45,482 nt of DNA, taken from positions 1 to 45,482 of the IMG/VR virus record IMGVR_UViG_3300017978_000301. The stretch is one strand, 5' to 3'. Shown one piece after another: positions 1 through 45,425 of the stretch (the stretch's first letter is position 1; each line of letters starts with the position of its first letter). The notes beneath the pieces are model-generated. The model made no database searches. It saw nothing but the letters and a program-made list of their open reading frames with translations, and was not told where the DNA came from. A program made the translations under genes and the position numbers. The DNA is from a virus. Its lineage: Duplodnaviria; Caudoviricetes.

Positions 1-55
1 TTCTATACATTCCCATACTATTCCCCTTGCGGAGCAAGCCGCGCATTTTTTTACA
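1..55. repeat. Exact 55-nt repeat of 42202-42256 (left anchor of the duplicated region)
   Basis: ttctatacat...ttttttaca is identical at both positions and the copies diverge immediately after. Confidence 0.97.
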
Positions 56-341: not shown

Positions 342-433
342 TCGCTATGTGTAAGTTCGCCTGTGTATAAGGGAAATCTTTTTAGAAAAAATTTGGGAAG
401 GGGTGAGTGGGCCCCCCTTCCTCCGTCCAGCAA

Positions 434-472
434 GCAGTGCTACCCCCTCCCCCCTTTTGGCTGGGTGGTGCT
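434..472. other. Conserved C-rich boundary element, candidate genome terminus/packaging site
   Basis: 39 nt identical to 42465-42503 amid divergent flanks; biased composition starts here; upstream of the terminase operon. Confidence 0.45.
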
Positions 473-542
473 GCTGCGCTGGCTGTGTGTCTGTCAGTAG
501 ATGCGATGGCTCTGCGCTGTGCTGGCTGTGGTGCTGCGATGC

Positions 543-597
543 GTTACTGACTCGCTGGTCATTAATTGTTTGAGTTACTGACTGAGCGGTCATTAAT
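543..597. promoter_or_regulatory. Tandem palindromic operator-like sites
   Basis: GTTACTGACT-N4-GGTCATTAAT at 543-566 and 574-597; one counterpart in allele B at 42555-42577. Confidence 0.5.
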
Positions 598-919
598 AGC
601 TGGAGGGAGGGAGCGAGCATTTATTCGTTTTAGTGTTCGCGCCTTTCTTTCCTCTCTCTCTATCCTTTCTCTCTTCCCCTATAGGTAGAGTTAACACAGG
701 CTAGAGGGTTTCCCTTTATTTATGCGGGTTTCGTGCTGGTTTTATAGAGGCACTGCGCTGGCATCTATCTGCTCTCTCTCTTACTGTTTCACCTATCTGA
801 TAGACAGACACAGGCGCAGGGTTTCTTTCTTTTCTTTCTTTCGCTGGTTTATATCTTGATTAAGCATAAGAAATCAAGAGATCATTATTTCTCTGTCTAG
901 ACTATTTGCATAAATGCTC

Positions 920-947
920 TTGACATGTAGAGGTTTACCTATACAAT
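920..947 (+). promoter_or_regulatory. Sigma70 early promoter (allele A) with overlapping palindrome
   Basis: TTGACA-16 nt-TACAAT; TGTAGAGG-TTTA-CCTATACA near-palindrome at 926-945. Confidence 0.7.
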
Positions 948-1005
948 TACAGACAGAGACAGCAAATCTCTACCTGTAATTTCAATTCAATTTAAAGGGT
1001 TTCAC

Positions 1006-1305
1006 ATGTCAGCAGTAATCACTCTCACACCATCGCTCGCAGCTCTTACTGACGAAATCGGCGCTATTCGCTCAGAAATTAAACGTCTTGAGGCTTTAGA
1101 TAAACAGCTCACAGATCAACTAAAAGAAGCTGGAGAGGGTAAGCATCAGGGCCACTTATATAAATCCACTGTTTCACCTACTAAAGAAACAGCAGTGACA
1201 GATTGGAAATCGGTTGCCATGCATTTTGAGCCATCACACCAGCTGATCACAGCTCACAGCGTTAAGCGTCCCGCTGGTTTTCGTGCTTTGGTTTCTCCTA
1301 TCTAA
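1006..1305 (+). CDS. First early protein, coiled-coil N-terminus, unknown function (allele A)
   Basis: AAGGG SD; clear homolog of 42978-43307 (LTPxLxAL, GAI, DWxxxAMxFEPSxQLIxAH). Confidence 0.85.
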   Translation: MSAVITLTPSLAALTDEIGAIRSEIKRLEALDKQLTDQLKEAGEGKHQGHLYKSTVSPTKETAVTDWKSVAMHFEPSHQLITAHSVKRPAGFRALVSPI

Positions 1306-1315
1306 GGGGCTAAAG

Positions 1316-1399
1316 ATGACTAAATTTCTCCTCTCTGTTGTTCTTTTCTCTGTGTGGGTCTGTCTCATGCTGGCATCTTTTGACGTTTTAACTAAATAA
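1316..1399 (+). CDS. 27-aa hydrophobic micro-peptide MTKFLLSVVLFSVWVCLMLASFDVLTK (not in ORF track)
   Basis: TAAGGGG SD; homolog in allele B also ends CLMxxFDVLTK-like. Confidence 0.75.
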   Translation: MTKFLLSVVLFSVWVCLMLASFDVLTK

Positions 1400-1409
1400 G
1401 GGGCTGAAG

Positions 1410-1604
1410 ATGACTAAAACAGAATCACAGGCTTTTATTCAAGCTTACTTAGACAACGTGGACTATTCTGCTAAAGATGCTGTCACAGCGTTTATAGATG
1501 ACTACAACAGTGGCGCAGAGCTGGCAGCATCAAGACAGACCACATCGTTTTTAGATGCGCTGCTGATGTGGAAATCAGCCATTCAATTCAATTCAATTCA
1601 ATAA
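1410..1604 (+). CDS. Hypothetical early protein (allele A only)
   Basis: TAAGGGG SD, tight operon packing. Confidence 0.7.
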   Translation: MTKTESQAFIQAYLDNVDYSAKDAVTAFIDDYNSGAELAASRQTTSFLDALLMWKSAIQFNSIQ

Positions 1605-1616
1605 AAAGGTTTCAAT

Positions 1617-2261
1617 ATGATTAAAATTTCTGTCACATCTAAGCTTGATGGCATTCGCTCATGGTCTTTACAGGCTTTGGATACATGCCCCGGCTCTGTC
1701 GCTGCGCCCGGTGAGCTGGTGGATGCCTGTAAAGGATGCTATGCCACCACAGGAAATTACAATTATCCTAATGTGAAAGCCCCTCGCGCCTCCAATAAAG
1801 AAGATTGGCAGCGCATAGATTGGGCTGATGACATGGTGGCAGCTCTAGACTCTGATCGCTATTTTCGCTGGTTTGATTCTGGAGATATGTACTCTCTGGG
1901 TTTAGCAGAGAAAATTCTGGAGGTGATGCAGCGCACACCGTGGGTAAAGCACTGGATGCCAACTCGCATGCATAAATTCCCTAAATTTCGCTCAGTGCTG
2001 GCAGCGATGCAAAGCTTAGATAACGTAATGGTGAGATTTTCCTCTGACAGCGTCACAGGCGATTACCTGCGCGGTACTCATGGCAGCGTGATTATTCCTA
2101 CTCCAATTGATGTACAGACAGGCATGCGCCTGTGCGAGGCTTACTCTAAAGCTGGCAAATGCTCTGGCTGTCGCTCATGCTGGGATAAAAAAATCCCTGT
2201 AATTGCATATCCTGCTCATGGTGTGAAGATGGCTAAAGTAATTCGTATTTTGAAAGCATAA
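1617..2261 (+). CDS. GP88-like Cys-rich putative Fe-S/radical-SAM-like protein (allele A)
   Basis: TCPG...CKGCYA, YFRWFDSGD, HWMPTR, VRFSSD, C-terminal C...CSGCRSCW...YPAHG; recalled similarity to the phage gene product 88 family. Confidence 0.7.
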   Translation: MIKISVTSKLDGIRSWSLQALDTCPGSVAAPGELVDACKGCYATTGNYNYPNVKAPRASNKEDWQRIDWADDMVAALDSDRYFRWFDSGDMYSLGLAEKILEVMQRTPWVKHWMPTRMHKFPKFRSVLAAMQSLDNVMVRFSSDSVTGDYLRGTHGSVIIPTPIDVQTGMRLCEAYSKAGKCSGCRSCWDKKIPVIAYPAHGVKMAKVIRILKA

Positions 2262-2271
2262 GGGGCTAGAC

Positions 2272-2484
2272 ATGAAAACCTATAGCGTATGGGTACTGGA
2301 TCGCGCAAACCAGCTCACAGAATACAAATACAGCTCACAGATGGCAGCAGATGACGCGAGCGATCTATTCGAGGCTGATGGGCATGATGTATTTACAGAC
2401 GGGCATCGCGCAGCTTTGGCGCGTGATCGGTTTGCTCGTTTTCTTATAAAACAGCATCGCCTCTCTGTGATTCATATCGGCTAA
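2272..2484 (+). CDS. Hypothetical early protein with C-terminal IHIG motif
   Basis: TAAGGGG SD; C-terminus resembles that of 43424-43729. Confidence 0.75.
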   Translation: MKTYSVWVLDRANQLTEYKYSSQMAADDASDLFEADGHDVFTDGHRAALARDRFARFLIKQHRLSVIHIG

Positions 2485-2490
2485 AGCTCT

Positions 2491-2514
2491 GCCAGCTCTG
2501 CGCTGGCTTTTTTT
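2491..2514 (+). terminator. Rho-independent terminator of early cassette A
   Basis: GCCAGC-TCTGC-GCTGGC followed by T7. Confidence 0.8.
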
Positions 2515-2820
2515 GGTCTGTAGGTAGCTCACGCTGCGTGAGCCTGTCTGCGTTTTGCTGGCACTGCTGTGCTGGCTGTCTGCGCCTGTCTGCTGGTTTC
2601 TGCTGGCTGTACTGCTGCGCCTGTCTCATGCTGCGTGATGCGGTAGGCGGTAGCGTATGCGCTGTTTTTAGGGGATTTATGCGGTATTCGATTAAACGCG
2701 ATTTAAGGCGATATAGAGGCGCGATGCTATGCTGCTATTAATCTATTATAAAACATGCCTTGCTGGCTGTTCTGATGCGTTTTAGCGCTATTTCTGATGG
2801 CTGTCAGATGCTGCGCTGTG

Positions 2821-2996
2821 TTCTAGGGGAAATTTTGACTATAAAAACGCGCGATGCGGGTGCGCGCAATGTGCGCGGCGGCGCGGGTGCGTGTGTGCGT
2901 GTGCATGTGCGTGTGTGTGCGCGTATGTGTGTGCGCGTGTACATGACCCCCCACCCCTAAAAAAGAAGACCCCCCCCATAAAAAAAGACCCCTCCC
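2821..2996. repeat. Conserved 48-bp core plus alternating purine-pyrimidine tract and GACn/An repeats (right boundary of cassette A)
   Basis: 2821-2868 identical to 44872-44919; 2887-2945 is a 59-nt perfect RY alternation; C-runs alternate with A-runs after it. Confidence 0.85.
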
Positions 2997-3031: not shown

Positions 3032-3388
3032 TTAGTGAAAACGTAGGAGAAACAGGGTTTTGTTAATCAAGTTGGCAATGTTGTCCACCTCGTTTTGGAT
3101 TTCGCTGTCTTGAGGGAGTTCTTTTCTCTCTTCTTCCACGTAGTCCTTCAGGTTCTCAAGCTCCTGCTTGCCTGTCTTGGCAGGGATGTAGTAACCATCC
3201 TTGAAGTCAAACGTGATGTCGTACTTACCCATGAGTGACTCAGCCAGCGTGTCTACCAGCTCAGGCAGTTCAACGTAGAAAGCACCCAAAGCTTGATGCT
3301 CTGCATAGCTCTTTGTCTGCCAGTGCAGGATGTGGGTGTTGGTGGCTGCGTGTAGCAGTGTCTGTAAGAACTCGGCGGCTTCTTTCAT
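3032..3388 (-). CDS. Ferritin/Dps-like four-helix protein (DUF5856-like), allele A
   Basis: HILHWQTKSYAEHQALGxFY...DxLAE motif typical of phage Dps-like proteins; allele B copy at 45069-45425. Confidence 0.8.
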   Translation of the reverse strand: MKEAAEFLQTLLHAATNTHILHWQTKSYAEHQALGAFYVELPELVDTLAESLMGKYDITFDFKDGYYIPAKTGKQELENLKDYVEEERKELPQDSEIQNEVDNIANLINKTLFLLRFH

Positions 3389-3744
3389 CTCTTAGCTCCA
3401 ATGTGTTTTAGCACTCGTAAGGCAGCTTCTACCTTCCAAGGTTTGGTACTGATTGTATCGGCTATGTTCCACCACTCGTGTACTTGCTTGTACCAAGCGT
3501 TGTCGAAGATTTTGGCTTTTTCTTTTTTCGAGGCTGGGCCAGTGTCCAACCATGTATGACACTTGTAGCAACCCCACACTGACATGCAGTCATCAGCCTT
3601 GAGGCCACGACCTTTGCCATGTATAAGCTCATTACTATGACAGGCAACAGTTGTTGAGCCTTCGTCACCATCGCAGTATGGATGGCATTCCAAGAGGCAT
3701 TTCTGCCCCTGTGCAAGCTTCAGTAGATCAGGATCGCGGTACAT
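3385..3744 (-). CDS. DUF1364/YbcO-like Zn-binding nuclease-fold protein
   Basis: CLLECHPYC...TTVACHSN..HGKGRGLKADD...GCYKCH; start moved to MYRD at 3744. Confidence 0.75.
   Translation of the reverse strand: MYRDPDLLKLAQGQKCLLECHPYCDGDEGSTTVACHSNELIHGKGRGLKADDCMSVWGCYKCHTWLDTGPASKKEKAKIFDNAWYKQVHEWWNIADTISTKPWKVEAALRVLKHIGAKR
3392..3445. repeat. Exact 54-nt repeat of 45429-45482 (right anchor of the duplicated region)
   Basis: ttagctccaatg...ccaaggtttg is identical to the last 54 nt of the window. Confidence 0.97.
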
Positions 3745-10919: not shown

Positions 10920-11305
10920 CCGTACCGTTAATCATCTATTTCGTAGAAGTCCTTGACAAGATTTCTTGTGCATTGACATTCATATTTATCATTGCTTTTC
11001 TTGGTGCGATAGTTAGCCTAATCGTCTGGTCATTTAATGCAGACATGAGTAAGTTTGGCAATGACTATGCAACAAAAGCAGCATCCGCTAAGAAAATGCT
11101 TAAAGGCATTGTCATTGTGATGTGTGTAACTGGAATACTTGACATCATCATCCCATCAAAGAAGACGATCTATTTGATGATTGGTGGCTACGCTGCTGAA
11201 TCAATTTATGAATCGCCTGAAGCAAAAGCATTTGGCAACAAAGTATTGAACATCGTAAACAACAAGCTTGATGAGCTTGAGCAATCAACCAAGGAAAAGA
11301 AATGA
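10916..11305 (+). CDS. Two-TM membrane protein
   Basis: Two hydrophobic helices and IPSKKTIYLM motif. Confidence 0.75.
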   Translation: MTVPLIIYFVEVLDKISCALTFIFIIAFLGAIVSLIVWSFNADMSKFGNDYATKAASAKKMLKGIVIVMCVTGILDIIIPSKKTIYLMIGGYAAESIYESPEAKAFGNKVLNIVNNKLDELEQSTKEKK

Positions 11306-11919
11306 ACGTCTATCAAAAGCTGAATGAAGCACGAGCAAAGTTTCACACATCCAAACTCAAGAAGTCTGGTCACAACAAGTTTGCCAACTACTACTACTTT
11401 GAGCTGGGTGACTTCATCATTCCAGCATTGGAAATATTCAATGAACTTGGCTTGACATCCATCATCAGTTTTGGCACTGAGAACGCAGTTATGGAGATTG
11501 TCAACACTGAGAAGCCAGAAGAGAAAGTATTCATCACTTCGCCTATGTCTAGCGCCGCTTTAAAGGGCTGTCATGAGGTCCAAAACCTTGGGGCAGTACA
11601 AACATACCTGCGCCGCTATTTGTGGGTTGCAGCGCTTGAGATTGTTGAACACGATGCGCTAGACGCTACAACAGGCCGCAAGGGTGATGCCCCCATCATT
11701 ACTCCAAAGGGTGGGATTGGCGATGACCTGCCAGACTCAGACAAAGAATTTTTGCAAGAGACAGCACAGTCAGTAGAAGACTTGTGCAAAGCTGGCAAAG
11801 CATCGGACGCATTAGCAATGGTCGATGAAATGGCACTGGAATCTGATCAGAAGGTATATCTGTTCGGCTTCTTGTCTGCACCAACACGGGCAGCTCTTAA
11901 AAAAGCAAAGCCTGTTTAA
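11302..11919 (+). CDS. erf: ERF-family ssDNA annealing protein
   Basis: KSGHNKFANYYYFELGDF; LGAVQTYLRRY; DALD. Confidence 0.8.
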   Translation: MNVYQKLNEARAKFHTSKLKKSGHNKFANYYYFELGDFIIPALEIFNELGLTSIISFGTENAVMEIVNTEKPEEKVFITSPMSSAALKGCHEVQNLGAVQTYLRRYLWVAALEIVEHDALDATTGRKGDAPIITPKGGIGDDLPDSDKEFLQETAQSVEDLCKAGKASDALAMVDEMALESDQKVYLFGFLSAPTRAALKKAKPV

Positions 11920-23581: not shown

Positions 23582-24640
23582 TTACAACTCCGAAGAAACT
23601 TCAATTGCGCCAGTATTCGTTGTGTATCCTGGTAAGCCAACAGCACTTGAGCCTGCGCCCGTTGTGGTGAAAAGAACCTGAGCAAAATTCACGGTTTGCT
23701 GTTGAATAGCTGAATATGTAAGGTTAGTAGCATCAGCTACTGTGTAGCTGTAAAAACCCAAAGTCCCTGATTTTGTGTAACTCGGATTTGCTCGCATCTC
23801 AACAGGGTTGTTAATCGTCACTACGACACTACCACCACCAGTAAGCCATGACCCCCATAGACTTTTTCCAGCTTTCCAAAAATACCGCTGACACAAAGCC
23901 AACTCAGTACCATACGGGCGGTAGTCAAAGCTCGTTGCTGTTGAGCCTTTTTCTAGTTGAACGCCTGTGATGTAGAAGGTGGCTCCGTTTGTACCCACTA
24001 CGTTCACTTGACCTGTTGGTGCGCGATAGTCATTGCCTGTCCATGCGCCAGCACCGCCAGTCTGTCCAGCGGAAACACTGTATGAAATAAACAAATAAAG
24101 GCCAGCGCCGTTTGTTGCTCCAATCCATGTGCCGCCTGTATCACCGGGAATAGTTGCTGAGACTTGTTGCCAAGTGTTTGCAGATGCAATCGTGTATTGG
24201 AAAACATAACTTCTGTTTCCCGCATCATTTTGAATTGCTCCACCAAATGTGCCAGTAAGACTTGATCGAACCCAAAATGACAATGTGATTGGTTGTGCGT
24301 TTGCAGTTCCCCACATTAAATCGGCAGTGTTGTAGCCCTCAATAGCCTGACGCAAGCTGTAATTTGATGCAGCAGATGTACTTGTGGAGGTTACACCATA
24401 GTAAAAAGAAAAACCTACTGGTGGAGTAACGCTACCTGCATTTTGCTGGACATTAAAACCGCCACCGCCCACGTTACATTTCCAACGATCAAGACCGTAT
24501 GCGTTTGAGGCTGGAGAAGTTTGAACTGCACCTGCATTACGCTGGTCAATCATCATCGCACCGTTGATGATGCGGTTCTTGAAGCCTGTGTACTGAGCCG
24601 CTGAACTTAGCAGCCCTTGGTCTACTTGTGTAAGTGCCAT
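23582..24640 (-). CDS. Tail fibre/RBP with carbohydrate-binding-like domain (paralog 1)
   Basis: GFKNRIINGAMMIDQRNAG...ITGVQLEKGSTATSFDYRPYGTELALCQRY; start moved to MALTQ. Confidence 0.8.
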   Translation of the reverse strand: MALTQVDQGLLSSAAQYTGFKNRIINGAMMIDQRNAGAVQTSPASNAYGLDRWKCNVGGGGFNVQQNAGSVTPPVGFSFYYGVTSTSTSAASNYSLRQAIEGYNTADLMWGTANAQPITLSFWVRSSLTGTFGGAIQNDAGNRSYVFQYTIASANTWQQVSATIPGDTGGTWIGATNGAGLYLFISYSVSAGQTGGAGAWTGNDYRAPTGQVNVVGTNGATFYITGVQLEKGSTATSFDYRPYGTELALCQRYFWKAGKSLWGSWLTGGGSVVVTINNPVEMRANPSYTKSGTLGFYSYTVADATNLTYSAIQQQTVNFAQVLFTTTGAGSSAVGLPGYTTNTGAIEVSSEL

Positions 24641-24642
24641 AT

Positions 24643-24834
24643 TTATTCTCCTTGTGTAGCCAACCACTCTTCAAACTTAGCTTGCTTGGCTGTTTCTTCA
24701 GCCACCTTAGCTAGTCGAGCAGTTTCTTGAATTTGCCATGCGGCATGAGAAGCTTGAGCTTGTGCTTGCTCTTCAATGGTTAGTTCAACTTCAGTTGTTT
24801 CACCAGTAGCAAGGTTGACTTCGATTCGCTTCAT
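24643..24834 (-). CDS. Small tail-associated protein
   Basis: RIEVNLATGETTEVELT motif. Confidence 0.7.
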   Translation of the reverse strand: MKRIEVNLATGETTEVELTIEEQAQAQASHAAWQIQETARLAKVAEETAKQAKFEEWLATQGE

Positions 24835-26556: not shown

Positions 26557-26714
26557 TGTTGCTCCTCTGCTGGCTCAGGGGTGTTCCCCTCTGATAGCCA
26601 TTGTAGATAGTCTGGGTTGGTTTCTGTGCAAGTCAAACGACAAACATTGTCATCATCAATACGGGCAACTATCTGAGGATCATTACCAACTTTTGGAAGA
26701 AGTTTATAAATCAT
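26553..26714 (-). CDS. Tail-fibre chaperone-like peptide (not in ORF track)
   Basis: NPDYLQWLSEGNTPEPAE; paralog of 23408-23581. Confidence 0.75.
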   Translation of the reverse strand: MIYKLLPKVGNDPQIVARIDDDNVCRLTCTETNPDYLQWLSEGNTPEPAEEQQ

Positions 26715-27796
26715 AGTTCAGCACTCCATGCAAGATATGCGGATGAATTTGCAGACCAAAGCATTGAAGGTTGGTTTGAAGTTAATCCAGATGCAACAGT
26801 AAAATTGACAACGGCTGACATATCAGTACTTGTTGAAAATGTTGGAACAGACGAACAAGAAATTTCAGTTTGTTGATGCCGCACTTTATAGTTAGCAGCC
26901 GTACCAGATTGCTCTAATGACGTTGGCCTAGTTCTTAAAGTAACAGGAAAGAACATCTGTCCCGTTGCAACGGTTGGTGCAGAGTTATATCCAACACCAA
27001 ATGGCTGGACATCCCCTGTTGCTTGAATCTTGTAGTAATACCGCTGGCACAAAGCCAACTCAGTCCCGTATGGACGATAGTCAAAACTTGTAGCTACAGT
27101 GCCTTTTTCTAGTTGTACACCAGTGATTTGCCATGTGGCGTTTAACGTAGAAATAATCTGCGTCTGTCCTGTTGCTCCAGCATAGTTAGCACCTGCCCAT
27201 ACTCCAGCAGTGCCAACACGGTTTGGGCCTTCTGCAATAGACCAGTTAATATTTATACCGATACCGTTTGTTGTAAGCCATGTTCCACTTGTATCACCAG
27301 CAATAGTGATTGATTTCTGTTCCCAAGTGTTTGCAGAGCTGATTGTGTAGCTAAACGGGTAGCTTCTATTAAATGCGCTGTTTCTTACCGAGCCACCAAA
27401 AGTGCCAGTAAGACTTGACTTGACCCAAAAAGATAATGTTACTGTTGCCGCACTAGCTGTTCCCCATGCTAGATCAGCGCAGTTCAAACCTTCAACCAAT
27501 TGAGAGAACCCAGAGTATTGGTCATTAGTTACACTTGCATCAGCAGTTGTAACAGTTGCTTTTGCAGAGTTAACAAAACCAGCAGGAGCATCAGAGACTT
27601 GTTGAAGTGTAAAAACACCCTCTGTATTGTCAAATGCCCAAAACCTGTCCATCACATAGTTTTTAGCGTCTGTGTTAATTGTGACACTAGCTCCAGCATT
27701 TCTCTGGTCGATTTGCATCCCGCCGTTGATGATACGGTTCTTAAACCCATAGCCAAGTCCACTGATGGACGAGGTGTCAATTGTGCTGATTGCCAT
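26711..27796 (-). CDS. Tail fibre/RBP (paralog 2)
   Basis: Same conserved blocks as 23582-24640. Confidence 0.8.
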   Translation of the reverse strand: MAISTIDTSSISGLGYGFKNRIINGGMQIDQRNAGASVTINTDAKNYVMDRFWAFDNTEGVFTLQQVSDAPAGFVNSAKATVTTADASVTNDQYSGFSQLVEGLNCADLAWGTASAATVTLSFWVKSSLTGTFGGSVRNSAFNRSYPFSYTISSANTWEQKSITIAGDTSGTWLTTNGIGININWSIAEGPNRVGTAGVWAGANYAGATGQTQIISTLNATWQITGVQLEKGTVATSFDYRPYGTELALCQRYYYKIQATGDVQPFGVGYNSAPTVATGQMFFPVTLRTRPTSLEQSGTAANYKVRHQQTEISCSSVPTFSTSTDMSAVVNFTVASGLTSNQPSMLWSANSSAYLAWSAEL

Positions 27797-41851: not shown

Positions 41852-42217
41852 CTATGCCTCCTCGTATGTCAAAGCAAAGATGTCAGGCTTGCAAGGGTAG
41901 TGTTCACCTTTTACCCCCGTAATGATGAAGTCGCCCGGGCAGACGATGTGCCCACCCTCCAGCGTGTCCACCCATCCGTGGTTGTGCATGATGTCGCCGC
42001 AGTGTTTGCAAGGGGCCTGGCCATCCAGTTCTGGTGTTCTGTATCGGCGCACGACATCACCCTCCCAATCATTGCGCTTGCGCTCTTCAGGAGAGAACGG
42101 ACGCAGCACACCCTTCTCATACCCATGATGGGTTTTGCTGTAATCCATTGGATGATCACCATTCTTGAACCACTGAGTAGCCTCTATCACTACAGGCTTC
42201 TTTCTATACATTCCCAT
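41852..42217 (-). CDS. PGDYG-like phage protein
   Basis: YRKKPVVIEA.QW, TLEG, PGDFIITGVKGEHYPCKPDIF..TYE; start moved to MGMY after AAGGGG SD. Confidence 0.8.
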   Translation of the reverse strand: MGMYRKKPVVIEATQWFKNGDHPMDYSKTHHGYEKGVLRPFSPEERKRNDWEGDVVRRYRTPELDGQAPCKHCGDIMHNHGWVDTLEGGHIVCPGDFIITGVKGEHYPCKPDIFALTYEEA

Positions 42218-42256
42218 ACTATTCCCCTTGCGGAGCAAGCCGCGCATTTTTTTACA
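42202..42256. repeat. Exact copy of 1-55
   Basis: Direct comparison. Confidence 0.97.
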
Positions 42257-42464: not shown

Positions 42465-42503
42465 GCAGTGCTACCCCCTCCCCCCTTTTGGCTGGGTGGT
42501 GCT
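42465..42503. other. Conserved C-rich boundary element (allele B)
   Basis: Identical to 434-472. Confidence 0.45.
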
Positions 42504-42890
42504 TGGTTGATCAAGGGCTTGGCTTGGTGGTGCTGGGGCTTGGTTGGTCTTGTTTAACTGACTGACTGGTCAGTAATTAAGCCTTGGGTAAGGGGACCGA
42601 TCACTTTATTGTTTTAGTCTTGGCCTTATCTTGTCCCCTTGTCTTGTCTCTTATCTATTCCCCTTACTGAAGAGCAACCAATGGCTTGGGGTTTCCTTGT
42701 TCTTATGCGGGTTTCGGGGTGGTTCTATAGTGGCAACCAATTGCTGGAAACCTTGGGCCTTGTCTTGTCTTGTCCCCTTATAGGATTGCAACCAATGGCA
42801 AAGGGTTCTTTTCTTTTCTTTTATATCTTGAATTGGCACTTTTTCAAGTTACTTATAAAAACACTGTCTAACTAATTGCACAAATAATGG

Positions 42891-42928
42891 TTGACACCCT
42901 TGCAAACGTATAAGTTAACCTATACAAT
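42891..42928 (+). promoter_or_regulatory. Sigma70 early promoter (allele B)
   Basis: TTGCAA-17-TACAAT, with an extra TTGACA at 42891; CGTATAAG-TTAA-CCTATACA near-palindrome. Confidence 0.7.
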
Positions 42929-42977
42929 CCACACACCAAACAAACCGTTTGGCATTGCAAACTAGGAATTCAATATC

Positions 42978-43307
42978 ATGCAAACGATCACACAAACCCA
43001 AACCACCGGCAACACCACCATTGCACTGACACCGGACCTTTTCGCCCTTATCGATCACGCCGGTGCGATTGATCAAGAGATAAAAGCCCTTACTAAGCAA
43101 TTAGACCAACTGAAAGACACCATAAAAGCCCAAGGTGCTGGGGACTTTGCCGGTTTCTTGTTCAAGGCCAAGGTGGTGGATATTGCCTCAAGCGATAAGG
43201 TGGATTGGCAAACCATTGCCATGCGCTTTGAACCAAGTTATCAATTAATAGCGGCCCACACTACACAAACCAAGGCAACGCAACGTATTAACTTTGCCAA
43301 GGTCTAA
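42978..43307 (+). CDS. First early protein (allele B homolog of 1006-1305)
   Basis: AGGA SD; shared motifs. Confidence 0.85.
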   Translation: MQTITQTQTTGNTTIALTPDLFALIDHAGAIDQEIKALTKQLDQLKDTIKAQGAGDFAGFLFKAKVVDIASSDKVDWQTIAMRFEPSYQLIAAHTTQTKATQRINFAKV

Positions 43308-43317
43308 GGGGTTCACT

Positions 43318-43413
43318 ATGCAAAACAAACTTTTATCTGTCTTGGGCTTTGCCTTTTCTTTTGTGGTGGCCTTGGTTTGTCTAATGGCCTATTTTGACGT
43401 TTTAACCAAGTAA
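43318..43413 (+). CDS. 31-aa hydrophobic micro-peptide MQNKLLSVLGFAFSFVVALVCLMAYFDVLTK (not in ORF track)
   Basis: TAAGGGG SD; homolog of 1316-1399. Confidence 0.75.
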   Translation: MQNKLLSVLGFAFSFVVALVCLMAYFDVLTK

Positions 43414-43423
43414 GGGGTGGACC

Positions 43424-43729
43424 ATGCCAAACAATGCACAAAACCATAATTTTTCGGGCCGCAAACCAAGCAAGGCCCAAGTATTGAACCAAGCCAAACG
43501 ATTGGCAAACGCTGGGGCCGATTTTGTGGCCCTTACATGGGGTGAAAATTGGATTGACTTACACCAAGACACAAACGGCAATTGGTCCGGCACTGGGTGG
43601 ATCAAGGAAATAGGCGGGGATTGGGTGGCGCGTGAATTGAACCATTGCCCAAGCAAACGATTGGCCCAAGGTTTTGGTGATCCGGTCAAGTTTTTGCGTG
43701 ATCACTTGACAATCATTCACATTGGATAA
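43424..43729 (+). CDS. Hypothetical early protein (WGENWI..., WSGTGWI) with C-terminal IHIG
   Basis: TAAGGGG SD; packed. Confidence 0.8.
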   Translation: MPNNAQNHNFSGRKPSKAQVLNQAKRLANAGADFVALTWGENWIDLHQDTNGNWSGTGWIKEIGGDWVARELNHCPSKRLAQGFGDPVKFLRDHLTIIHIG

Positions 43730-43740
43730 GGGGAAAAGTA

Positions 43741-44439
43741 ATGCAAAGCAATGTAGCGTTGACGTTAAAAAGTGCAAACGTAAAAACCGGCCCGATCCCC
43801 GTTTCAATTACTGGGGCCGATAGTTGCCCCCCAAGTTGCCCCTTTTCCGGTGGTGGATGCTATGCAAAGGGCGGACCACTTGCAATTCATTGGCGCAAAG
43901 TAACCCAAGGGGATCGGGGTTTGCCTTGGTCCGATTTTGTGGCGCAAATTAGCGCTTTGCCGGACAATCAATTGTGGCGACACAATGCAGCCGGTGACTT
44001 GATCGGCGCGGGTGAATCAATCGATCCGGTGGCCTTGGGGCAATTGGTTGCCGCTAACCAAGGGAAAAAGGGTTTTACTTATACGCATAAGACAAACGAC
44101 ACCGCTAATTTCCAATGGATCAGGGCCGCTAATGATTGGGGTTTTACGGTGAACCTTAGCGCTAATGATCTACACCATGCCGATCAATTGGCCGATATTG
44201 GGGCCGGTCCGGTGGTGACTGTCTTACCAATTGACGCGCCACCCAAGCAATTAACACCCAAGGGCCGCACGGTGGTGACTTGTCCGGCAACGTATCGGGA
44301 CAATGTATCGTGCGCCACTTGCAAACTTTGTGCGGTGTCCGATCGATCAACCATTGTGGGTTTTCCGGCGCACGGCAATGCCAAGGCCAAGGTGCAAAAG
44401 GTCTTTTTTGCAAAGGTGGTGGACCATGCCGGAAATTGA
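43741..44439 (+). CDS. Cys-rich putative Fe-S protein, distant relative of the allele A gp88-like protein (possibly DUF7227-like)
   Basis: SCPPSCP...GCYA, WRHNAAGD, YTH, VNLSA, CPA...CATCKLC...GFPAHG. Confidence 0.7.
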   Translation: MQSNVALTLKSANVKTGPIPVSITGADSCPPSCPFSGGGCYAKGGPLAIHWRKVTQGDRGLPWSDFVAQISALPDNQLWRHNAAGDLIGAGESIDPVALGQLVAANQGKKGFTYTHKTNDTANFQWIRAANDWGFTVNLSANDLHHADQLADIGAGPVVTVLPIDAPPKQLTPKGRTVVTCPATYRDNVSCATCKLCAVSDRSTIVGFPAHGNAKAKVQKVFFAKVVDHAGN

Positions 44440-44596
44440 CAATATAGGCGTAATAACCACCCAAGGGCCGGACTTGGTGCGGGTTGCTGGGGTTTCCGGT
44501 GGCTTGGTGTATGCCGTGCCAATTGCCGGACCATATAAGGTGCGGGTTTGTTTGCCGGACCAATTTTGGTGTTTGTTGGATCGTTTGCCGGATTAG
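44426..44596 (+). CDS. 56-aa hypothetical early protein MPEIDNIG...
   Basis: GGTGGACC-ATG leader like that of 43424; ends just before terminator. Confidence 0.6.
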   Translation: MPEIDNIGVITTQGPDLVRVAGVSGGLVYAVPIAGPYKVRVCLPDQFWCLLDRLPD

Positions 44597-44615
44597 TCCG
44601 GACCTTTTGAAAAGT

Positions 44616-44641
44616 GGATCGGTGCGCCGGTCCCTTTTTTT
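44616..44641 (+). terminator. Rho-independent terminator of early cassette B
   Basis: GGATCGG-TGCG-CCGGTCC then C-T7. Confidence 0.75.
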
Positions 44642-44871
44642 AAGGGTTTGGTTAGTAAGCGCTAACTTACATTTTTTGGATCGGATCGGGTTTTGTACTT
44701 GGTCCGGTTTTGGGTTTTGCCGGTGGTTTTGGGTGGTTTGGAAAATCGGGCTTTTGAGGCCCTTTTGTGGTCCACCTATACCTTGGCCTTGGTTATATAT
44801 AAAACCCAGCTTCTAGCCCGTTTTGGCGCGTTTTGGCGGCATTGTGGTGCGGGTGGTTTGGGTGGCTTGGC

Positions 44872-45038
44872 TTCTAGGGGAAATTTTGACTATAAAAACG
44901 CGCGATGCGGGTGCGCGCATGATGTGCGCGGCGGCGCGTGTGCGTGTGCGCATGATGTGCGCGGGTGCGTGTGCGCGTGTGTGTGTGTGTACATGTATGA
45001 CCCCCCCCTCAAAAAAAATGACCCCCCCTTAAAAAAAG
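44872..45038. repeat. Conserved 48-bp core plus RY-alternating tracts and GACn/An repeats (right boundary of cassette B)
   Basis: 44872-44919 identical to 2821-2868; RY runs at 44934-44954 and 44965-44999. Confidence 0.85.
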
Positions 45039-45068
45039 AGGAGGTCTAAGTTCCATCACCCAAAAAGA

Positions 45069-45425
45069 TTATTTGAAACGCAAGAGGAACAAAGTTTGGT
45101 TGATCAAGTTGGAAATACTGTCGATCTCATTTTGAATGTCACTGTCTTGCTCCAGCTGAAGACGAGTTTCATTCACATAGTCTTTCAGGGCTTCTAGCTC
45201 TTCTTTGCCTGTGTCTGCTGGCTCGTAGTAGTTGTTGTCAAACCTAAATGTGATGTCGTACTTGCCCATCATCTTCTCAGCCAAGCCATCAACTAGCTCC
45301 GAAAGTTCATCATAAAACTCACCCAATGCTTGGTGTTCGGCATAGCTCTTTGTCTGCCAGTGCAATATGTGAGTGTTGGTCACTGCATGTAGCAGGGTCT
45401 GTAAAAAGTCGGCAGCAGTAGTCAT
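45069..45425 (-). CDS. Ferritin/Dps-like protein, allele B
   Basis: Same length and motifs as 3032-3388 with many substitutions. Confidence 0.8.
   Translation of the reverse strand: MTTAADFLQTLLHAVTNTHILHWQTKSYAEHQALGEFYDELSELVDGLAEKMMGKYDITFRFDNNYYEPADTGKEELEALKDYVNETRLQLEQDSDIQNEIDSISNLINQTLFLLRFK

Follow-up and report, generated by a model that had tools for sequence, protein, structure and literature searches.

Restricted DNA vocabulary in an exchangeable cassette of uncultured tailed phages and its probable origin in the avoidance of host restriction

Why should two short segments of a phage sequence be written in a narrower set of short words than the DNA between them? The question is raised by the IMG/VR virus record IMGVR_UViG_3300017978_000301, all 45,482 nucleotides of which (the window) were analyzed here. 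The record belongs to an uncultured tailed phage with portal, capsid and adaptor proteins of SU10 type, and also encodes an Erf annealing protein (11302-11919), a GH19 endolysin and an Rz-like spanin. The closest cultured relatives of its large terminase are the PaP3-like Pseudomonas phages (33% identity). The two biased segments are treated here as alleles, A and B, of one cassette. The answer that we favor, with a probability of about 0.7, is that this cassette is leading-end DNA purged of many restriction motifs.

1..55, plus strand: assembly branch node, identical to 42202-42256
443..2868, no strand: allele A restricted-vocabulary cassette, seen in word counts, Markov profile, codon nulls and A..T spacing
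42481..44906, no strand: allele B cassette, with open reading frames (ORFs) 42978-43307, 43318-43413 and 43424-43729 plus a DUF7227 gene at 43741-44439

In addition to the repeated branch node, the final 54 bases of the window were the same as the 54 bases ending at 3445. These matching ends indicate that the assembly formed a single bubble with A and B as its two paths, and the contig is read as both paths in the order allele A, core, allele B. The true genome would be of about 42 kb and carry one allele, with a near-identical core that, judging from the topology of the bubble, would be common to A and B strains. An assembly or sequencing artefact was considered, since the window reads through this bubble. 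Nevertheless, A-like DNA (about 90% identity) was present in the IMG/VR locus L001 and, in pieces, in all four sequencing runs examined; B-like DNA was found in L081-L083 and in three of the four runs; and pieces of both alleles occurred in the freshwater runs X2 and X3. These occurrences and the intact ORFs refuted an artefact as the source of the vocabulary, and we give that explanation practically no credit; the artefact is limited to the union of A and B in a single contig.

Restricted vocabulary of alleles A and B

Words were counted on both strands between positions 473 and 2820 and compared with the core (3001-42200). The initial annotation had reported that allele A lacked CCAAG/CTTGG and TCCG/CGGA, and both were indeed absent, when about 11 (core rate, 4.54/kb) and 5.6 copies were expected, respectively. 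GAAC/GTTC was as scarce as described, with 3 copies (about four had been estimated) against 21 expected, and CAGCTCACAG was found four times, at 1105, 1250, 2311 and 2331, and never in the core. The single GGCC and the two CCGG had been counted correctly, but they do not constitute a depletion because the core is already poor in both (CCGG, 0.71/kb) and predicts 3.6 and 1.7. Further and stronger losses (observed/expected) affected CAAC (6/40), CAAG (8/38) and CCAA (10/39), together with ACAA (7/32), AAGT (3/23) and GAAG (5/27). The biggest ones corresponded to words with CAA, AAC or AAG, CAA/TTG itself being present 48 times against 147 expected. The words said to saturate the cassette were enriched over the core rate, although only moderately: 1.6-fold for CTG/CAG, 1.5-fold for TCT/AGA, 1.4-fold for CTC/GAG and 1.3-fold for GATG/CATC. 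CAGC and ACAG reached 2.3-2.5 times that rate.

The bias was limited to 443-2868 (A) and 42481-44906 (B) by a Markov profile whose models were trained on those same regions. The rest of the genome had been described as free of such a bias, which holds in that the bias is confined to the cassettes and fails for GGCC and CCGG; TCCG is likewise low in the core and forms, with these two, the exception to a region-confined depletion. CCGG (28 in 39 kb), GGCC and TCCG are rare in the core and abundant in B (25, 22 and 22 copies), which is the reverse of ordinary palindrome avoidance.

The depletion survived a codon-preserving null in both alleles. The five coding sequences of A contained 406 distinct canonical 5-mers, versus 454±6 after shuffling their own synonymous codons (minimum of 600 shuffles, 431) and 461±7 under the codon usage of the core, and the coding DNA of B contained 351 versus 433±7 after synonymous shuffling. 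Under the same shuffle, the control genes gave 460 versus 467 (terL) and 403 versus 419 (capsid). As the initial annotation had stated, the bias extended from coding into non-coding DNA. Acquisition of the early genes, bringing a foreign composition or a codon usage adapted to translation, would agree with the unusual codon use and the horizontal swapping of the cassettes, and codon adaptation has been reported for plasmid leading regions (PMC13478746). Neither accounts for a bias that is strand-symmetric, reaches non-coding DNA and persists across codon boundaries after synonymous shuffling. Moreover, homologous genes for the cassette protein GP88 differ in vocabulary: the words avoided in the rest of A occurred 41 times in the GP88 gene of A, the fewest among 81 homologs, compared with 47 in that of L001, 55-111 in the others and 65±6 in synonymous shuffles of the A gene. 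The results on non-coding DNA and codon shuffles already largely refute this class of explanation, which we regard as very improbable.

In allele B the bias bent the proteins themselves. All 27 glutamine codons were CAA, and only 6 glutamates were found in 477 codons, the DUF7227 protein holding one of them (range 1-18 among 120 homologs). The two alleles had been called mirror images, and this was only partially true. Eight 4-mers were low in A and high in B and 12 showed the reverse, that is, 20 mirrored words, with five low in both (GAAG, GAAC, CAAC, CGAC and AACA); yet the word correlation between A and B was only -0.09 raw, -0.02 after subtraction of the core and -0.49 after subtraction of the family mean. 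Among 2145 cassette pairs, which are non-independent and were compared post hoc, A-B ranked as the fifth (raw) or seventh (centred) most negative, and both alleles were opposite extremes on the second principal axis of the cassette vocabularies. The simplest reading of this wide separation is that they face differing pools of host strains.

A family of exchanged cassettes and the spacing of A and T

The left border of the cassette was used as a pattern and matched 52 IMG/VR and 117 metagenome stretches. Of the 176 oriented sequences, 93 continued for 1.9 kb or more downstream, and 69 were distinct at 95%. A right border lay 2.25-3.5 kb from the left one in 49 of the 69 (median 2.6 kb), and the end of the other 20 was set at 2.2 kb. 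Three cassettes with a guanine-plus-cytosine (GC) content above 0.6 were removed as chance matches, leaving 66 for the spacing and later analyses; the set comprised no fewer than 66 distinct cassettes, which fell into 20 homology groups. Two leads were discarded: the 40 matches of the border pattern in genomes, sought as a clue to the host, fell in unrelated, mostly GC-rich taxa and were judged from their titles to be chance, and the two-border contig L192/L196, a possible second allele pair, was an identical duplicate.

Across the family, the vocabulary restriction began at the border and had faded by 3.2 kb (successive mean z values of -4.9, -4.7, -4.4 and -2.7, then -0.8), with values of -0.8 to -2.0 upstream of the border. 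Near-absent 4-mers numbered 4.8 per cassette (n = 69) versus about one per flank (n = 85; p 3e-13). Each cassette had its own set of missing words, with members recurring across cassettes: GGAG in 22 of the 69, CCGG in 17, GAGG in 16, AGGA in 13 and GCCG and GAAC in 11 each. The depletion was strand-symmetric, with r of 0.38 in the 69 cassettes versus 0.02-0.04 in the 85 flanks. Avoidance at the mRNA level, by endoribonucleases, was ruled out because the words were lost on both strands. ORFs longer than 90 amino acids pointed inward in 133 cases and outward in 21.

Unrelated cassettes were found in phages sharing 82-92% of the upstream core (A/B, L158/L105, L095/L087, L107/L119 and L158/L090); therefore, the module has been exchanged between backbones. 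The missing words were also maintained after divergence. Because the avoided-word sets were defined on A and B, counts within these two alone are circular. In four of five gene pairs, diverged orthologs regained fewer avoided words than the synonymous null (p 0.0005-0.0055), and a 450-base stretch of L001 without homology to A contained 64 A-avoided words per kb versus 136 per kb in its flank. Similar vocabularies (r up to 0.56-0.59) were shared by non-homologous cassettes with no aligned DNA.

A second signature concerned the spacing of bases. According to Table 1 of PMC3874165, 6-9 bases separate the methylated adenines of characterized Type I enzymes, which corresponds to offsets 7-10. Pairs of A at position i and T at i+7 to i+9 were counted and compared with shuffles preserving 5-mers. 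Pooled pairs in the cassettes were 0.86-0.89 of expected at offsets 7-9 and 0.96-1.03 at 11-21, versus 0.96-1.05 at offsets 7-9 in the flanks. Allele A showed 407 pairs against 489 expected (z -5.4; offsets 7-11 singly, -2.3 to -4.2 each) and allele B 315 against 455 (z -7.6). A dip with z < -2 was present in 59 of 66 cassettes and in 4 of 83 flanks, and the value was lower in the cassette than in its own upstream flank in 41 of 42 cases and than in its own downstream flank in 38 of 41. With a single cassette taken from each homology group, all 20 had a ratio below 1 and 18 of them fell below the T..A control (p 6e-5); overall, A..T was below T..A in 53 of 66 cassettes versus 40 of 83 flanks. 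Within allele A the dip was seen in the coding block and in the 5' non-coding DNA (A..T z -3.9; T..A -0.8). Under the codon null it persisted in A (-2.5) and B (-5.0), with values of -1.2 to +1.4 for terL, portal and capsid.

The first-injected DNA of phages T5 and T7 served as a positive control and showed the same dip, although weaker than in the cassettes. Values were -2.4, -4.5, -2.2 and -4.3 in the first-step DNA of T5 versus -0.2 to -2.0 beyond it, and -2.4, -3.5 and -1.9 in the first 6.9 kb of T7 versus -0.3 to -1.7 later; 17 windows of the core of the window phage gave -2.6 to +0.8. In Acinetobacter phage Bestia, the left 4 kb, where its GP88 gene lies, gave -3.2 and -2.5 (three later windows were also < -2), and the first window of CRP-4 gave -2.2. 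As a separate observation, 64 unique GP88 loci (L002-L080) without a match to the border pattern had A..T(7-9) ratios of 0.86 near the gene and 0.96-0.99 farther away, which may be a leading-region mark or an effect of the protein sequence.

The most depleted half-site contexts were CAC, CCA, ACA, GCA, CAG and AAG, and several of these appear as half-sites in published tables (PMC3874165). Pooled bipartite losses, picked post hoc, included AAG-N5-CTT (22 observed/94 expected), CAC-N6-GTG (12/68) and CCA-N6-TGG (36/74). Nine bipartite Type IIG/IIB motifs were depleted in the cassettes (0.74 versus 1.01 in flanks, p 0.04), a test that is weak in both directions because the published motifs come from other bacteria. 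Counts of distinct gapped context pairs did not set the cassettes apart from the controls.

Explanations weighed against the evidence

The purging of defence targets from leading DNA, as proposed in the initial annotation, is supported by the codon nulls, the strand symmetry and the loss of A-T pairs at Type I/IIB spacing. Its attribution to one host group was not supported: the enzymes of a single strain would not explain losses so numerous and so short, which indicate a pool with many specificities.

Several results weigh against this explanation. In the same weak test, the 37 published Type I motifs were barely depleted in the cassettes (0.93 versus 1.03 in flanks; per-motif p 0.72), and in A they numbered 18 at their true spacing versus 13-23 at shifted ones, i.e., no depletion. 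The T..A control was also reduced (mean z -2.5; < -2 in 43 of 66), so that part of the dip is not orientation-specific, and the 336-base 3' non-coding part of A showed no dip (z 0.1). Seven of the 69 cassettes lacked any near-absent 4-mer, and the substitution test between the GP88 genes of A and L001 was not significant (p 0.15). No cassette protein fell into a known anti-defence family in the family searches. Physical genome ends were not visible in the contigs, the only material examined; no host was obtained, as the terminase had no match among GTDB genomes and the endolysin homologs bore no host names, and the methylome search for likely hosts turned up none. One Type I motif is described for Polynucleobacter QLW-P1DMWA-1 (PMC7522526). 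Finally, 10-mer direct repeats in A numbered 82 versus 16 under a 5-mer-preserving null, with 14 versus 12 for inverted ones, and avoidance alone does not predict repeats.

This last excess is what local mutation or recombination would leave, if slippage, Erf microhomology copying or terminal-repeat gene conversion homogenised the cassette without selection on words. The family shows it likewise (median observed/expected of direct repeats, 2.16 versus 1.29 in flanks), the four copies of CAGCTCACAG fall in three reading frames, and an Erf gene is present in the window phage. Such copying leaves unexplained the strand-symmetric zeros, the spacing-specific dip common to T5 and T7, the recurrence of the avoided words, the alike vocabularies of non-homologous cassettes and the exclusive use of CAA for glutamine in B. 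As the sole cause it is quite unlikely; more probably, local copying supplies safe words that selection then keeps. In a toy avoidance model with random strings, made-up motifs and one shared motif pool, vocabularies were reduced but positively correlated between runs (0.27-0.69), with GC drift in the larger runs and a slight A..T dip at most. The model did not produce anticorrelated vocabularies and did not reproduce the real pattern.

The lack of depletion of the published Type I motifs in A would also suit a host system that reads DNA by means other than classical restriction-modification, such as bacteriophage exclusion (BREX), Dnd/Ssp phosphorothioate modification, the protospacer-adjacent motifs of CRISPR or nucleoid silencers. 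The scarcity of GAAC/GTTC in both alleles, and its near-absence in 11 of 69 cassettes, point the same way, since this word is a phosphorothioate motif. Selection for protein-binding words of the Chi kind is a related option, suggested by the strand bias of GCTGG in A (23 on the plus strand and 3 on the minus strand within 473-2820), a word that resembles a Chi core. GGTG was also strand-biased in B (31 versus 13). None of these systems, however, predicts a loss of A..T at 7-9 with normal counts at 12-20, and the avoided words are gone from both strands. Such a system can act alongside restriction avoidance; in place of it, we consider it unlikely.

Genes, borders and known systems

The borders, genes and signals of allele A are as follows.

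375..470, no strand: conserved left border, with an A/T-tract, GGGAAnGGGnGAGTGGGCCC at 395-414 and CCAG..TACCCCC (consensus over 66 cassettes)
920..947, plus strand: sigma-70-type promoter, 11/12 consensus, directed into the cassette (consensus match only)
1006..1305, plus strand: ORF of 99 amino acids, 45% identical to the first ORF of B; family present in 26 of 66 cassettes
1316..1399, plus strand: hydrophobic ORF of 27 amino acids; the B counterpart, 43318-43413, has the same C-terminus
1410..1604, plus strand: ORF of 64 amino acids, no family match
1617..2261, plus strand: GP88 (PF17338), Cys-rich protein, weak radical-SAM-like fold (SAM, S-adenosylmethionine)
2272..2484, plus strand: ORF of 70 amino acids, no family match
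2491..2514, plus strand: terminator-like hairpin and T run at the end of the operon
2821..2990, no strand: right border, in which purines and pyrimidines alternate over a run and GACCCCCC-AAAA is repeated; B counterpart at 44872-45040

The left border sits between the leftward terminase operon and the rightward operon of small early genes behind the promoter, as in Bruynoghevirus, and is likely a genome end or terminase site. The promoter scan gave two matches where 3.7 were expected by chance. The right border, present through its C-tract part in 49 of 69 cassettes, is a candidate injection stop or terminal-repeat boundary, although this is suggestive only, and its purine-pyrimidine run could possibly form Z-DNA. 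Just beyond it lies a DUF5856 gene (3032-3388 and 45069-45425; PHROG label, starvation-inducible regulator) that differs between alleles (82% over 237 aligned bases); the exchanged tract therefore reaches beyond the biased DNA. In L001 (positions 1-135), 121 bases from the Erf gene region replace the usual left border in front of the A-type cassette, which may represent either a chimeric contig end or a sign of a physical end.

The 99-amino-acid ORF had no match in Pfam, PHROG, NCBIfam or PADLOC. A gene of 215-260 amino acids of the GP88/DUF7227 group was carried by 59 of the 66 cassettes. The GP88 structure model (predicted local distance difference test score, 66.7) has invariant C24, C38 and C41 plus four C-terminal Cys; its top three structural matches were radical-SAM enzymes, all weak (Z 5.3-5.9; root-mean-square deviation 5.0-5.5; 155-162 aligned residues). 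Foldseek found nothing at E ≤ 0.001 and a search of the Atlas returned only GP88/DUF7227 clusters. No function for GP88 was found in the largely open-access literature searched. Given its position and the need of Type I enzymes for SAM, GP88 is proposed as a candidate anti-defence enzyme acting against restriction. Its slot is filled by interchangeable, distant Cys-containing proteins (GP88, DUF7227, phrog_2554 and phrog_1617; e.g., L092:1987-2763 and L213:5708-6481), and relatives of these proteins in cultured phages of Acinetobacter and Roseobacter are located close to record ends. Of 16 phage records, 10 had the GP88 relative within 4 kb of one end, although record starts may be conventional. 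Elsewhere in the window, two paralogous tail-fibre-like genes of 361 amino acids (phrog_4492; 23582-24667 and 26711-27796, 3.15 kb apart) lie in a block of several fibre genes, a possible host-range module.

Under the favored explanation, restriction avoidance in leading DNA, the gene layout suggests that the genome ends at the left border and that the cassette enters the cell first. It would have to escape a wide range of host restriction-modification enzymes up to the point at which its own genes, with a predicted anti-defence role, are expressed. The selecting agents would be many bipartite Type I/IIB and short contiguous specificities across host strains, the contiguous ones presumably of the IIG, III and II classes. 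Dropping entire half-sites of 3-4 bases would be the cheapest escape from combinatorial sites, and the enriched vocabulary would come from local copying of already safe words. A and B would avoid different motif pools and open different host strains, and a GP88/DUF7227-type protein or a neighbour might shield the DNA that enters later.

A bolder and only tentative extension is restriction-type switching. Here, a 2.5-kb first-step injection cassette would be swapped between conserved borders, with A and B as complementary alleles that negative frequency-dependent selection maintains in one population, each of them escaping a different enzyme pool. The right border would act as an injection brake, and the radical-SAM-like GP88/DUF7227 enzyme would disarm SAM-dependent restriction ahead of the entry of the remaining DNA. 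If this were true, the missing words would reveal which restriction specificities uncultured hosts possess.

For T5/BF23 and Murciavirus, early-injected DNA was already established as the main target of restriction (PMC10644984; PMC12455610), and leading-region avoidance has hitherto been known from single motifs in a small number of cultured phages. The present case would involve a family-wide, bordered and exchangeable module of uncultured aquatic phages that bends codon and amino-acid use. No earlier description of such a vocabulary-restricted phage cassette was found in a search of largely open-access literature. Having been checked on T5 and T7, the A..T(7-9) statistic offers a simple marker of likely first-entering DNA that needs the sequence only, and also marks a bipartite-site avoidance missed by palindrome-based screens. 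GP88 and DUF7227 are named as candidate anti-restriction proteins.

Among the known systems, T5/BF23 is one in which restriction acts only on sites in the first-transferred DNA (PMC10644984). The cassettes resemble it in the A..T(7-9) dip, in the similar share of the genome (about 6% in the window phage) and in a repeat-rich non-coding border that closes the first-step region (PMC10644984; NC_005859 annotation); their narrow length and repeat-bearing right border recall the first-step DNA of T5 and its stop signal. In contrast, T5 is a 121-kb phage whose terminal repeat measures 10 kb, its loss of vocabulary is mild (469/486 distinct 5-mers, compared with 447/488 in A and 391/474 in B), and no homolog of A1/A2 was matched in the window phage. 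Murciavirus and T7 share with the cassettes a variable early region with candidate anti-defence genes, the only region in which Type I sites matter (PMC12455610). Nevertheless, one motif was lost there by point mutation, according to the same source, whereas the cassettes have lost dozens of 3-5-mers together with a bipartite geometry, with amino-acid use bent, and are exchanged as whole bordered units with private vocabularies.

Bruynoghevirus (PaP3/LUZ24/tf) holds the nearest cultured terminase, and its late operon begins at the right end with small early genes at the left (PMC3517423; MT119362), as might be the case here. Its replication genes differ, the left end of phage clash has no restricted vocabulary (493/502; A..T z -2.0) and injection polarity is described as unsettled even for tf (PMC3517423). 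Finally, the leading regions of plasmids are also first-entering DNA rich in anti-defence genes (PMC13478746; PMC11541004). They differ in that PMC13478746 describes codon adaptation and no consistent depletion of palindromic motifs, whereas the depletion in the cassettes is strong, mostly non-palindromic and reaches non-coding DNA.

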